Below, piece after piece: positions 371 to 45,470 of a stretch of 48,349 nucleotides of DNA. The first letter of the stretch is position 1. The number at the start of each line of letters is the position of its first letter. Below the pieces are notes generated by a model, which was not told the origin of the DNA, did no database searches, and saw only the letters and a program-made list of their open reading frames with translations. The translations under genes and the position numbers were made by a program. This stretch comes from a virus, in IMG/VR virus record IMGVR_UViG_3300037110_000132; one strand, written 5' to 3'.

Positions 371-1018
371 ATGAAACTACATTTAACAGCGTCTGTCAAA
401 GTTCAAGCTGGTTTCTCAAAAGAGCAGATTGATTACACGAATTCGTTCGCGGAACACAAGGGAGCAGAATTCAACTACGACGACCCAAAGCTTCTGTGGG
501 GAGGAAGCCGTTATTACATTTTGAAGACTCCGATCAAGAGCAAGAAATATGGTCTGACTAGATTTGTATTTGACACTGGATTTGGTGGACGAAAAGTATC
601 CCCAACTGGCCAGATGTCTGGTGATGGGACAATGGATGTACATCCCGCGAAAGAAGCTTACGGAGAGTTTGATAGAGATCAAACTCTAACTATAGAAGAT
701 GAAACCTGCAAGAGTCTCCCGATTCGTCACACCTACCACGCACCCCAGGATCTGTCCCCATACAAGAAGCCTTATTCTGGTCCTAAGCTTTTAAAGGCTA
801 AACTAGAGATTTGTGAAGCCAACACTGATGCATATGCCGCTACACTATACTTTCCCCTAGGGACTACTGCGAATCAGGCAAAACATTACCTCGTTAGTGT
901 AGACGGAAATCTCGGCTTGGAATTGGGTGTTGACATTGACGATGTGTTTTTCAGCGTAAAACAAACCAAGAAGCAACCAAAGAATTCAGTAAGATTCCAG
1001 GCTGATCCTTCGGTATAA
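371..1018 (+). CDS. Hypothetical protein carrying the conserved N-terminal leader (MKLHLTASVKVQ)
   Basis: 215-aa ORF with Shine-Dalgarno agaggg. Its N-terminus matches the M-K-L-x-L-K/T-A-x-I/V-K motif shared by about 10 proteins in the window. Confidence 0.65.
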   Translation: MKLHLTASVKVQAGFSKEQIDYTNSFAEHKGAEFNYDDPKLLWGGSRYYILKTPIKSKKYGLTRFVFDTGFGGRKVSPTGQMSGDGTMDVHPAKEAYGEFDRDQTLTIEDETCKSLPIRHTYHAPQDLSPYKKPYSGPKLLKAKLEICEANTDAYAATLYFPLGTTANQAKHYLVSVDGNLGLELGVDIDDVFFSVKQTKKQPKNSVRFQADPSV

Positions 1019-1024
1019 TCCAGA

Positions 1025-1099
1025 GCGATCGTAATTCAGTGGTAGAATGTCTGCTTGCCATGCAGAATGTCGTCGGTTCAAGCCCGATCGATCGCTCCA
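1025..1099 (+). tRNA. tRNA-Gly (GCC)
   Basis: Acceptor gcgatcg/cgatcgc. Anticodon stem tctgc/gcaga with loop ttGCCat. T-arm with ttcaagc loop. CCA encoded. Confidence 0.8.
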
Positions 1100-1116
1100 A
1101 TAAATATATTTTCCAT

Positions 1117-1192
1117 AGATCCGTAGCTAAGTGGTTAAAGCGCATGGTTTTCATCCATGTTAACGCCGGTTCGATCCCGGTCGGGTCTACCA
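1117..1192 (+). tRNA. tRNA-Glu (TTC)
   Basis: Acceptor agatccg/cgggtct (one GU pair). Anticodon stem catgg/ccatg with loop ttTTCat. T-arm gccgg-ttcgatc-ccggt. CCA encoded. Confidence 0.75.
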
Positions 1193-1337
1193 GATTCATA
1201 GAGACATAGTGAGCCAGTAAAGTCCTGCAGCGCACCGGCTGGTCCAGTACGATGGAAAGGTGCCCCATCCCACTATGTCGTTTCCAAGTAGGCGCTGGAG
1301 CTATGAATCCAATCACTGGCAAATCCAGGCGTTCCAA

Positions 1338-1366
1338 TTGCAGGACCGGCAGGTCCGTGGTAAGAT
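1338..1366 (+). promoter_or_regulatory. Sigma70-like promoter TTGCAG-17-TAAGAT with an embedded inverted repeat
   Basis: TTGCAG at 1338-1343, a 17-nt spacer containing the palindrome ggaccggcaggtcc, then TAAGAT at 1361-1366. A gaggt Shine-Dalgarno and the ATG at 1384 follow. Confidence 0.4.
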
Positions 1367-1383
1367 GGGATTTGAGGTAGAAA

Positions 1384-1950
1384 ATGAAGCTGTCTCTTAA
1401 TGCGCATATCAAGAAATCTGAGCGGGATGGGGTTATTCCACAGAAACCAGCGAAAGAAGTTCTTGAGGCGTTAAAGAACTATGTTCTCGTTCCCCCTCCG
1501 TTGAGTCTTGATGAGAAGCTTGAACAATGGAATTGTTGGAATGGAAATCATCTAACAAGGGAAGATGTTCTTGAATTAATTGCCCGGTTCCCTTATCATG
1601 GCGTATTATATCGGGGTCTCACCTTTACATCTCGATCTGATTATGAGACATTCTTGGATGTCATTAAAATGGAGGGATTTGAAGACTATCGTGCGTCCTC
1701 ATGGACCACCGATCTTGAGGTAGCGAGGACTTTTGCAACAGGGAAGCAAACCACCAGAAGGGGTCGATATGGTGTGGTGTTGAAACACGAGGGTGAAGCG
1801 GCTGATTTTAGTGCTTATGCCCAGCAACAACACATTTTTCATAAGAATAAAGCCGAGCAGGAGAAGGAAATGATCGTCGCTCCTGGCAAAATCGATGCAA
1901 AGGTCATTGAGTGGTATGTTAAAACAAAACAAGGCTGGATAGCTCAGTAG
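1384..1950 (+). CDS. Putative ADP-ribosyltransferase (R-S-E type) with the conserved N-terminal leader MKLSLNAHIKK
   Basis: Three catalytic motifs in canonical order: LYRGLTF (Arg), ASSWTTDLEVARTFA (STS-like) and EQEKEM (Q/E-x-E). Confidence 0.6.
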   Translation: MKLSLNAHIKKSERDGVIPQKPAKEVLEALKNYVLVPPPLSLDEKLEQWNCWNGNHLTREDVLELIARFPYHGVLYRGLTFTSRSDYETFLDVIKMEGFEDYRASSWTTDLEVARTFATGKQTTRRGRYGVVLKHEGEAADFSAYAQQQHIFHKNKAEQEKEMIVAPGKIDAKVIEWYVKTKQGWIAQ

Positions 1951-2009
1951 CGAAGAGCGCTGCTCTCATAAGGCAGAGGTCGTGAGTTCGATTCTCACTC
2001 CAGCCACCA
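1933..2009 (+). tRNA. tRNA-Met/Ile2 (CAT), elongator type
   Basis: Acceptor ggctgga/tccagcc with G1-C72 paired. Anticodon loop ctCATaa. T-arm gtgag-ttcgatt-ctcac. CCA encoded. It overlaps the last codons of the upstream ORF. Confidence 0.8.
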
Positions 2010-2147
2010 ATGAGGTAGTTAATGCCGATGGGAAAGATACTCTGGACGTTCGGGCCTGGGATATCTCGTCAAACATTGGAGAACTGGGCCGAATACCTGG
2101 GCTTCCTCGCCAGATCAAGTTGTGATATCCTAGGATAGAGGAATCCG

Positions 2148-43832: not shown

Positions 43833-44051
43833 ATGCTATGCATTCCTCTTCCACCAGACGGAAAGATTCCTCGCTGCCAAACCTGTGGCCAGAACTATGC
43901 CAATGAGGGAATAATCCCGGCCCCAGGGCAGACAAATACAAATGTAGGAAGCTTCCAGTGGGTTCCTTCCTGTAAATGCCCTGATCTTCCTATCTCACCT
44001 AAGATCATCGGAAACTATTTTGCCTATTCAGGTGCAGTAAACTTAGGTTAA
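43833..44051 (+). CDS. Hypothetical Cys-rich small protein
   Basis: 72-aa ORF. Confidence 0.4.
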   Translation: MLCIPLPPDGKIPRCQTCGQNYANEGIIPAPGQTNTNVGSFQWVPSCKCPDLPISPKIIGNYFAYSGAVNLG

Positions 44052-44068
44052 AATTTCAGGGAGTTGCC

Positions 44069-44506
44069 ATGACTATTCTTCACATTCTCGAACGAATTGA
44101 GAGTTCTTTGTCCGCTGTTAAGGATAATCTCGTGAATCATAATGATTCTGTACTTGTTAAATTTGATGAATACCTGAAGATGCGTCGTGTCTATGATGAT
44201 CATAAGGACAAGAATTATCAGATTACCTTGACCATCGTTGACAGAAAGATCATTGAAGAAGATGGAAAATCTACTCAGATTTCTAGTCTCAGCTGCAGCA
44301 CCAAGGGATTCCCTGATGACACCGAAACGAAGCTGACAGAGATCTACCAGAGGGTGTTTGAGAATGCTGCCTATGTCGCCTATCTGGAAAACAAGCTAAA
44401 GGATACCAAGGTAGAACTCGCAAAATACGAAAAGTATTACCGTGAAACCAAAGAGGAAGTGAAAGAAGAACTCAAAGCCCTGAAGCATTGGTGGCAGAGA
44501 GGCTGA
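44069..44506 (+). CDS. Hypothetical coiled-coil protein
   Basis: 145-aa ORF with Shine-Dalgarno agggag. Confidence 0.5.
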   Translation: MTILHILERIESSLSAVKDNLVNHNDSVLVKFDEYLKMRRVYDDHKDKNYQITLTIVDRKIIEEDGKSTQISSLSCSTKGFPDDTETKLTEIYQRVFENAAYVAYLENKLKDTKVELAKYEKYYRETKEEVKEELKALKHWWQRG

Positions 44507-44507
44507 T

Positions 44508-44687
44508 ATGTGGTTACAGGGGGTACCTGAAGAGATAGGCGTCTATTGGGCTTGTTACGAGGAACCCCGTACGAAAAGAAAAGAATACGGCGAGATCTCG
44601 ATCGATTGGGACAAGAAATGTTTCCGCAGAGGGAGAGAGGTCAATAAGGTCTTCGGATGGTACTTGATCGCTCCTTGTCCCTTGTGA
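44508..44687 (+). CDS. Small hypothetical protein (59 aa)
   Basis: The ATG follows the upstream stop by one nucleotide and is preceded by gagagg. Below the ORF-track cut-off. Confidence 0.35.
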   Translation: MWLQGVPEEIGVYWACYEEPRTKRKEYGEISIDWDKKCFRRGREVNKVFGWYLIAPCPL

Positions 44688-44704
44688 TAAAATAATAAGA
44701 CAAC

Positions 44705-44793
44705 GGTGACTGTGGCGAAACTGATAGCCGCGCTAGACTGTGGATCTAGTGTCTGTAATGGACGTGGGAGTTTGAGCCTCCTCAGTTACCCCA
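44705..44793 (+). tRNA. tRNA-His (GTG) with G-1 and a long variable region
   Basis: Extra 5' G (G-1) opposite discriminator C73, which is the histidine identity element. Acceptor gtgactg/cagttac. Anticodon stem ctaga/tctag with loop ctGTGga. 16-nt variable region with a gtc/gac hairpin. T-arm gggag-tttgagc-ctcct. CCA encoded. Confidence 0.5.
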
Positions 44794-44812
44794 AGTTGAA
44801 TTGTAGTACCAT

Positions 44813-44889
44813 AGAAGCGTCGTCCAGCCCGGTTAGGATAGGGGACTCCAAATCCTCCGACGAGGTTTCAAATACCTCCGCTTCTGCCA
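44813..44889 (+). tRNA. tRNA-Trp (CCA)
   Basis: Acceptor agaagcg/cgcttct. Anticodon stem gggga/tcctc with loop ctCCAaa. T-arm gaggt-ttcaaat-acctc. CCA encoded. Confidence 0.75.
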
Positions 44890-44915
44890 ATGTTATAATG
44901 CCCTAGAGGTATGAG

Positions 44916-45470
44916 ATGAAGCTTACCCTTAAGGCGACTATCAAGAAAAATGCAACCATATCAGTAAGGCAGGGGCCAGCAGCTAAAGCTCATCCAGAGG
45001 TATTGGTTTATATCGCTGAACATATGGTAGAGATGATCGAATACGCAGAGAGGGGTGAACTCTCTACCTTCTTGGATGAAATCCCGAATTGTACCTACAT
45101 GGTTGATGCTGATTTTGATGACCCACGTACCATAGCAAGTATTGATGGCTGGGGGTTAATTTGGAGGCCAGCTAACGATGCATCTCCGATCTACAAATGG
45201 GAAAAGGATAGCGAGGATAGGGAATTTAGTAGAGATCTTTATCAGCGACTTCTTGGCCCAGCTATTAAGGATGATGTGACAGTGGCTTATTGTCACGAAT
45301 GTGGAGCGGAAATCGGAGAAGATGACCCTTGTTTCACTGACGACGACAAACCGCTTTGTACTAAATGTCATAGGAAACAGACTTCCCTGGAACCATACAA
45401 TGATTCGGATAAGGATATCTTACGTGGAATGGGAATCAAAGGGAAACTCAGGTTCAAGATTAGTGTATAA
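44916..45470 (+). CDS. Hypothetical protein with the N-terminal leader (MKLTLKATIKKNA)
   Basis: 184 aa. C-terminal CHECG...CTKC zinc-ribbon. Confidence 0.6.
   Translation: MKLTLKATIKKNATISVRQGPAAKAHPEVLVYIAEHMVEMIEYAERGELSTFLDEIPNCTYMVDADFDDPRTIASIDGWGLIWRPANDASPIYKWEKDSEDREFSRDLYQRLLGPAIKDDVTVAYCHECGAEIGEDDPCFTDDDKPLCTKCHRKQTSLEPYNDSDKDILRGMGIKGKLRFKISV

Follow-up and report, generated by a model that had tools for sequence, protein, structure and literature searches.

A short peptide tag at the extreme N-terminus unites ten otherwise dissimilar proteins encoded by the virus record IMGVR_UViG_3300037110_000132, a complete Joint Genome Institute (JGI) metagenome contig of 48,349 bp with phage character, called the window throughout. 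The tag spans the first ~11 residues, with the consensus M-K-L-x-L-K-A-x-I-K-K, and is carried by 10 of the ~71 predicted genes that form the scored gene set. It recurs on a second contig, the 307-kb IMGVR_UViG_3300037110_000087, in which some of the tagged genes stand among head genes. The explanation favored here, tentatively and at somewhat less than an even chance, is that the tag serves as a label for loading proteins into the prohead or virion, comparable in function to the capsid-targeting sequence (CTS) of phage T4 and not homologous to it.

The ten open reading frames (ORFs) listed in the preliminary description of this DNA are all present, with the starts it gave, and its size range of 96–477 amino acids (aa) is correct. 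The scores quoted for them are from a position matrix derived from the ten tagged ORFs themselves and are partly circular for that reason. On the plus strand, the series begins with the ORFs at 371..1018 (215 aa, MKLHLTASVKV, 25.1 bits), 1384..1950 (188 aa, MKLSLNAHIKK, 28.7 bits, with a YRG / SSWT / E-K-E triad in the cargo), and 2148..2918 (256 aa, MELRLKAYIDS, 25.8 bits, with Lys/Glu-rich cargo). The next, at 3285..3725 (146 aa, MKLNFKAKIAG, 27.0 bits), has LYHG and SFWTDD motifs in its cargo and uses an ATG inside the mechanical ORF 3183-3725 as its start. It is followed by 4792..5082 (96 aa, MKIILQATVKT, 22.6 bits) and 6095..6664 (189 aa, MKLRFIATTAK, 24.6 bits). Farther along are 41157..42590 (477 aa, MELCLKAHIKK, 29.3 bits), which ends in a GNAT acetyltransferase domain; 42587..43252 (221 aa, MKLHLKAKIKD, 30.8 bits), with LYRY / QSWT / Q-K-E motifs in the cargo; and 44916..45470 (184 aa, MKLTLKATIKK, 31.8 bits), with a CxxC...CxxC zinc ribbon. 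The start of the 42587 ORF overlaps the stop of its tagged neighbor at 41157, and an identical copy of its protein is found on a Logan contig. The tenth ORF, at 29468..30805, is on the minus strand and starts with GTG (445 aa, (M)KLYLKAKIAS, 29.8 bits).

Weaker versions of the tag had been described at two further ORFs, and one of these is credible. The 347-aa ORF at 30980..32023 on the minus strand starts with MKLTMIAGPLRD and scores 0.6 bits, yet it retains M1, K2, L3, M5, and A7 (MKLTMIAGPL). The 1384 cargo has no closer paralogue, and the ORF is plausibly read as a tag member in decay. The other, at 39122, does not stand, since its start (MKLNITPEWL, −2.6 bits) has only MKL in common with the tag. 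The tagged 445-aa ORF and the 347-aa ORF, which resembles an ADP-ribosyltransferase (ART), are the sole long minus-strand genes of the contig, and they occupy the stretch 29400-32100. This stretch has a GC content of 0.40 compared to ~0.47, with reversed skews, and was perhaps acquired separately as an island.

The division between tagged and untagged genes is clean and bimodal. All ten tagged ORFs match the pattern M-[KE]-[LI]-x-[LF]-x-A-x-[IVT]-[KDA] and score 22.6–31.8 bits, the remaining 61 of the 71 predicted genes all score 0.6 bits or less, and the runner-up among 3046 candidate starts is a 15-aa ORF with 12.9 bits. When the pattern is searched in six frames, the matches are the ten, the weak 32023 case, one 22-aa junk ORF, and nothing else. 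At the DNA level, the pattern ATGRARCTN4CTNAARGCN4ATH (with at most one mismatch) has five matches in the window compared to 0.00 expected from 100 dinucleotide-preserving shuffles. Unrelated IMG/VR loci totaling 1.39 Mb served as a negative control, and in them no ORF of at least 40 aa had a start that reached 14 bits. The matrix scores, the shuffles, and this control lead to the rejection of a chance origin for the tag.

Selection on the tag acts at the level of the peptide. Across codons 2–11, the mean pairwise identity is 0.57, 0.69, and 0.30 at codon positions 1, 2, and 3; the first two positions are thus conserved and the third is random, which is the mark of selection on the peptide. 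Identity outside the tag is 0.28 from −70 to −1 upstream (the random level), 0.32 from −20 to −1, and 0.26 over codons 12–20. Synonymous variation is extensive: different codons are used in 143 of 210 pairs of identical residues, many codons occur at the Leu and Ala positions, and the invariant Ala7 is encoded by GCG, GCA, GCT, and GCC. A repeated cassette of promoter, ribosome-binding site, and start codon, which the preliminary description had itself raised as the danger to its idea, was checked and is ruled out by the codon-position identities. In a broader form of this explanation, the conserved element would be a nucleic acid, whether such a cassette, one for recombination, or a site on the mRNA where a translational regulator binds. 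Several tagged members do share a TGTTAnAAT box 15–19 nt 5' of the ATG and an AGAGG Shine-Dalgarno sequence at similar spacing. However, the third codon position and the upstream region vary as described, synonymous codons abound, two members (42587 and L001 354) are translationally coupled and have no box, and a TGnTAnAAT-type box also stands 5' of a tRNA gene and of an untagged gene in the window. Taken together, these observations make conservation of a nucleic acid element very improbable.

The boxes themselves are consensus matches. An extended −10-like box, TGTTATAAT, lies at 343..351 on the plus strand, 19 nt 5' of the ATG at 371. Similar boxes occur on the plus strand at 1358-1366, 4768-4776, 41142-41150, and 44891-44899 and on the minus strand at 30823-30831. 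In the case of the 41157 ORF, the −10-like box TGTTAAAAT (window 41142-41159) ends 6 nt 5' of the ATG and there is no Shine-Dalgarno sequence, so the mRNA may be leaderless. The tagged genes at 371, 1384, 2148, 4792, and 44916 begin ~30–190 nt past a tRNA gene, and at 371, 4792, and 44916 the promoter-like box is no more than ~12 nt from the 3' end of the tRNA. In the 307-kb contig, T[GA]nTAAAAT boxes are found ~20 nt 5' of several structural genes, and the boxes of the window are therefore no argument for early-only expression.

The cargo behind the tag is diverse. With the first 12–14 residues removed, BLASTP and single-sequence hhalign find almost no similarity past residue 14 among the window proteins, and at this sensitivity the earlier statement that the downstream proteins are unrelated holds. 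The exceptions are the pair 1384 and 32023 (E 5e-4; hhalign 53%) and a faint match of 1384 to 3285. Two of the assignments made earlier are borne out. Residues 349–428 of the 41157 protein match Pfam Acetyltransf_1 (24.4 bits compared to a cut-off of 20.7, E 3.7e-5), as well as the acetyltransferase family phrog_1249 (E 1.4e-5), and the CxxC pairs of a zinc ribbon are seen in 44916. The ADP-ribosyltransferases, on the other hand, find no confirmation in any profile and are suggested by motifs only. By inspection, an ordered YRG ... SW[ST] ... [QE]-x-E-hydrophobic triad is present in 1384, 32023, and 42587, where the third element is [EQ]KE followed by hydrophobic residues, and degenerate versions occur in 3285 and 6095. 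These three proteins have no match to ART families in Pfam at E ≤ 0.01, and the ART-like cargo has none in the PDB with single sequences or a 3-sequence profile. On the 307-kb contig, the ORF directly upstream of a tagged ORF (L146 407-1492, minus strand) weakly matches Pfam ART-PolyVal, “ADP-ribosyltransferase in polyvalent proteins” (E 3.3e-4, below the cut-off).

Residues 70–125 of the 1384 protein match the 1440-position “minor head protein” family phrog_16619 (E 1.6e-5). Most tagged proteins are orphans, and among 5.8 billion proteins searched, those at 371 and 1384 matched only themselves. A cargo set made up of a GNAT protein, ART-like proteins, a zinc-ribbon protein, and orphans is what would be expected of effectors for host takeover or counter-defense.

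So far, the tag appears to be confined to two huge-phage contigs. A degenerate tag pattern has 51 matches in JGI metagenome contigs and 31 in GTDB genomes, all of them single, internal to known genes or in a bacterial context, and chance-like. A looser pattern has 64 matches in IMG/VR, about the calculated chance number; six of these are on the 307-kb contig, and all other contigs have one each. A profile of the first 30 residues, run against 1.84 billion representative proteins (E ≤ 0.001), has N-terminal matches to the window's own proteins and to no others, along with internal matches to three long, repetitive or multi-stretch proteins. A matrix scan of the fetched pieces of the 307-kb contig finds at least 10 tagged ORFs, with the consensus MKLHLKAFVKK. 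Their cargo is mutually unrelated and also unrelated to that of the window, with the exception of one domain of ~90 C-terminal aa, shared by the 371 protein and a variant-tag ORF (30% identity over 92 aa, hhalign 50%). A comparison of the window with 55 kb of the 307-kb contig shows no similarity beyond the tag and this domain. Because the tag is kept across two contigs that are otherwise dissimilar, its conservation where all else has diverged implies a conserved reader.

The 307-kb contig also carries two more ORFs with a variant tag, MKMKFVAKKVKV/MTKLKFKAKKTKK, followed by YPTITFHKDNKSGNDKSAVQPLKKK. An extended module, K-F-K-A-K-K-T-K-K-YPTITFHKDNKSGNDKSAVQPLKKK, forms the N-terminus of two ORFs of this contig, with an internal copy in one. 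At L105 3009-4943, adjacent variant-tag ORFs follow the pattern [MK]-K-F-[VK]-A-K-K-x-K-x-YPTI[VT]F[NH]KDNKSGNDKSAV[QK]PLKKK, and the variant module of ~30 residues is repeated at about residue 155 of the first. A 402-aa tagged ORF nearby (L105 1797-3005) contains another copy of the tag, MELHLVATIQKK, in frame at residue 153, with the Shine-Dalgarno-like AAGGAAGG in front of it. This ORF would be either a fusion of two tagged genes or a gene with an internal start.

The gene neighborhood in the 307-kb contig brings the tag close to the head genes. From ~116.9 to 156 kb, all predicted genes are co-oriented except one 63-aa ORF. The order opens with two untagged ORFs and continues with four tagged and two variant-tagged ORFs that have one untagged 232-aa ORF among them. 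Small ORFs, proteins of 718 and 601 aa, ORFs of 156, 524, and 398 aa, and a 125-aa ORF come next. They are followed by a baseplate-J-like protein, which tblastn aligns with annotated baseplate J proteins (E 3e-6 to 1e-4), and by large tail-fiber-like proteins (PHROG tail matches). The terminase large subunit (phrog_17415, E 3.6e-75) and a 146-aa Zn-ribbon ORF precede three tandem tagged ORFs of 83, 93, and 69 aa, which are acidic past the tag (isoelectric points of 4.05–4.66). A 139-aa ORF, the portal (phrog_16240, E 1.4e-78), two small ORFs, and the head maturation protease (phrog_18299, E 1.4e-31) complete the order. The four tagged and two variant-tagged ORFs are thus in the same co-oriented block, ~20 kb upstream of the terminase-portal trio. 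The tail and baseplate character of the array region is drawn from one weak baseplate-J match and the tail-fiber PHROG matches; most proteins of the tagged array and its neighbors have no Pfam or PHROG match, and the maturation protease has no sequence match in the PDB. In locus L157, whose portal is 57% identical, the order is terminase, a 184-aa ORF, the 139-aa ORF, and portal. The absence of tagged ORFs between terminase and portal there argues that the tagged genes are an insertion into the head module.

The tag has the pattern of an amphipathic basic beta-strand, in which L3, L5, A7, and I9 or V9 alternate with Lys at positions 2, 6, 10, and 11 and with the free positions 4 and 8. Such a strand could extend a sheet of a receptor protein at its edge. 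If so, a common phage-encoded receptor would read the tag, and diverse proteins would be co-assembled into the virion. The receptor might be a head-assembly component that binds the strand and carries the tagged proteins into the interior or core of the prohead, which is their most likely destination. Once packaged, the proteins would remain with the DNA and be delivered into the next host.

The targeting sequence of T4, MKTYQEFIAE, is acidic and ends in a Glu, after which the protease gp21 cuts. The preliminary description had pointed to a Glu within 13–30 residues as a possible protease site. Such a Glu is indeed there in most of the proteins, but a Glu frequency of ~7% (an estimate) predicts as much. 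The first Glu falls at residues 13–53 across 22 tagged proteins, so its distance is not fixed. Given the lack of a fixed distance or motif and a tag that ends in Lys-Lys, the proposed protease site is not upheld. A conserved cleavage site of any kind past the tag was sought in the 22 proteins, and none was found.

Several points weigh against a loading label. The tagged proteins are known here from their genes alone, and at least ten distinct packaged cargo species per 48 kb would be many. Only the 307-kb contig links the tag to head genes, and it is the tag by itself that relates the window to that contig. Within the window, Pfam and PHROG scans find no head or tail genes; the tagged genes sit among tRNA genes, homing endonucleases, and auxiliary genes, and for the most part each has its own sigma-70-like box. 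There is no resemblance to MKTYQEFIAE by eye, and the residues before the first Glu (P3/P2) show no consensus among the 22 proteins. AlphaFold2 is uninformative, with a predicted local distance difference test (pLDDT) score of 42 for 1384 (5-sequence alignment) and 36.5 for 44916 (single sequence).

One alternative is that the tag is a sorting or processing signal for a destination other than the capsid, such as a protease or AAA+ unfoldase, the tail tube, or a shell like that of the major vault protein (MVP)-like protein of the window. Protein-level conservation on unrelated cargo fits this too, and so do the promoter-like boxes that most tagged genes of the window have to themselves. The window encodes a PrkA AAA-domain protein, its MVP-shoulder protein is immediately upstream of three tagged genes, and in the 307-kb contig six ORFs with the tag or its variant are in the tail and baseplate part of the block. 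Extracellular contractile injection systems (eCIS) also load payloads via N-terminal signals (PMC11495950; 10.1101/2023.11.13.566157). However, those signals are disordered polar stretches that lack a consensus, whereas this tag is amphipathic and tightly conserved, and three tagged ORFs lie between terminase and portal. Furthermore, the 1.39 Mb surrounding 80 PrkA homologues contain no tags, and neither do the MVP loci L004, L056-L058, and L152-L155. The MVP-like protein has more than 6600 homologues, and since none of the eight loci examined has a tagged gene, the earlier suggestion of loading into an MVP-like shell is not borne out. There are no tags near the MVP-like homologue in LR756500/501/503 either, and a close-relative scan of limited sensitivity with the window's MVP-like protein did not recover the 307-kb contig. 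An association of the tag with MVP-like or PrkA genes was rejected for lack of tagged neighbors in the loci examined. Overall, a non-capsid destination is rather unlikely. A more ambitious version, in which the tag is the address of a new huge-phage sorting system with a reader other than the prohead core, is quite doubtful. Its receptor would feed dozens of effectors to the tail lumen or to an MVP-like or other shell, or hand them to an AAA+ machine that activates or destroys them at a set time.

The tag could also be structural rather than a sorting signal, as the conserved first beta-strand of an old, diverging paralogous family or as a shuffled N-terminal module, perhaps a short N-terminal hairpin, with a role such as oligomerization, nucleic-acid binding, or folding. 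The alternation in L-x-L-x-A-x-I is typical of a strand, and in several members a turn and another alternating stretch come next. The tandem arrays of tagged genes, the second in-frame tag at residue 153, and the extended module, which is found on two ORFs of the 307-kb contig and internally in one, agree with this view, and the three to five window members with ART-like motifs may be true paralogues. Most pairs, though, have no similarity past residue 14 even by hhalign, and the cargo ranges from 61 to 477 aa and includes a recognizable GNAT domain far from the tag. In addition, the ~11 residues of the tag are far better conserved than the rest across two otherwise dissimilar contigs, which fits an external reader better. 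A structural first strand is unlikely on balance, and a loading label remains the preferred explanation.

The other genes of the window suggest that it comes from a huge phage. The MVP-like protein (36932-39043, plus strand; 703 aa) has MVP shoulder and vault repeat domains. Its alignment with homologues of ~810 aa begins only at their residue 103, and their first ~100 residues are encoded nowhere in the window. It is 42–45% identical to proteins in the huge-phage records LR756500/501/503, which are labeled “uncultured phage” and are 462–735 kb long, and the window is therefore probably a fragment of a huge phage. The closest homologue of the MVP-like protein, at 71% identity, comes from a contig of bacterial appearance that also encodes FtsK and ribosomal L10/L12, a possible clue to the host lineage. 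The first 7 kb of the window, the only stretch searched, have no DNA similarity to deposited phages except at tRNA genes. A complete operon of PrkA (AAA and kinase C-terminal domain), DUF444, and SpoVR is found at 22547-27224 on the plus strand of this phage contig. PrkA relatives are encoded in at least 218 IMG/VR stretches, and the best 80 are 65–80% identical.

The 17 tRNA genes are scattered singly or in pairs over 149-44889 and do not form one cluster. The window also encodes His-Me and HNH endonuclease-like ORFs and an SPFH lipoprotein. Auxiliary metabolic genes are present on the plus strand at 34555-34905 and 40402-40866, one PanD-like and one a deaminase. The first, similar to aspartate 1-decarboxylase (PanD), is known by its Pfam mark on an identical Logan contig, and the other is a dCMP/cytidine deaminase. 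Two small overlapping ORFs at 32402-33012 (plus strand) look by eye like a HigB/RelE-type toxin (with the motif GGLRKLR) followed by an XRE/HigA-type antitoxin. Also by eye, a 92-aa ORF at 20267-20545 (plus strand), which starts with MKGFNLIELLLVLAILGIISAVAIP, has the prepilin-like N-terminus of a type IV pilin or pseudopilin.

If the tag is a loading signal, an 11-residue motif would reveal from sequence which proteins an uncultivated huge-phage lineage delivers or sorts, and more than 20 orphan proteins would become candidate effectors of host takeover or anti-defense. It would add to the T4 code a second way of targeting the capsid, of independent origin and in much wider use. Swapping cargo behind a fixed tag would then be a general route by which large phages diversify the proteins they inject, and the tag itself would be a compact means of loading foreign proteins into large capsids. 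Were a new sorting system the answer, the tag would define a whole effector arsenal that is otherwise unrecognizable. Even with another destination, a tag kept so sharply across unrelated cargo implies that some specific protein reads it, and this reader can be sought.

Known tags offer several comparisons. The tags of encapsulins and microcompartments and the INT domain of vaults resemble this one in that a short tag or domain loads unrelated cargo into a shell, and the window encodes an MVP-shoulder protein. These signals are helical or C-terminal, or a domain of ~160 aa, and INT binds the major vault protein. No encapsulin or microcompartment shell gene appears in Pfam scans of the larger ORFs of the window. 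In eCIS, payloads such as Pdp1 and Pnf of PVC and Afp18 are loaded into the tube by N-terminal signal peptides (PMC11495950; 10.1101/2023.11.13.566157). They are similar in having N-terminal tags on diverse toxins and effectors, and their payload genes cluster beside the structural cassette, an arrangement that the 307-kb contig resembles in gene position only. They differ in that eCIS signals are stretches of 20–50 residues that depend on a Pvc15-type AAA+ ATPase, compared to 11 residues here. In phage P1, a reporter that carries the first 30 residues of DarB is targeted to the capsid (PMC9024508). This N-terminal signal suffices for entry into a myovirus capsid, and its cargo is a large anti-defense enzyme delivered with the DNA (PMC9024508). 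The Dar proteins have no common consensus, however, whereas here the consensus is the striking feature.

The closest parallel is with T4, in which the first 10 residues of IPIII suffice to encapsidate foreign proteins, the T-even internal proteins are highly diverse and have only the targeting sequence in common, and Alt, an ADP-ribosyltransferase, is a core protein that undergoes processing (PMC9026906, PMC3012670). Within the IPIII propeptide, residues 4 and 7 serve targeting, and residues 8 and 10 serve processing (PMC9026906). As with the T4 CTS and the Alt propeptide, the tag described here takes up ~10 residues at the extreme N-terminus of otherwise diverse proteins, its cargo includes or resembles host-modifying enzymes, and in the 307-kb contig tagged genes are in the head module near the maturation protease. 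The analogy to T4 drawn in the preliminary description therefore stands for the shared tag on unrelated cargo and, circumstantially, for the position in the head module, and it fails for the sequence and for the Glu at the end. Unlike the T4 CTS, this tag is basic and strand-like, with Lys at 10–11 and no conserved Glu after it, and it is found on far more genes (10 in 48 kb). Shared N-terminal loading tags on diverse phage cargo are already known from T4, P1, and eCIS. What would be new here is an unrelated sequence, conserved more sharply than the signals of P1 and eCIS and carried by far more genes.

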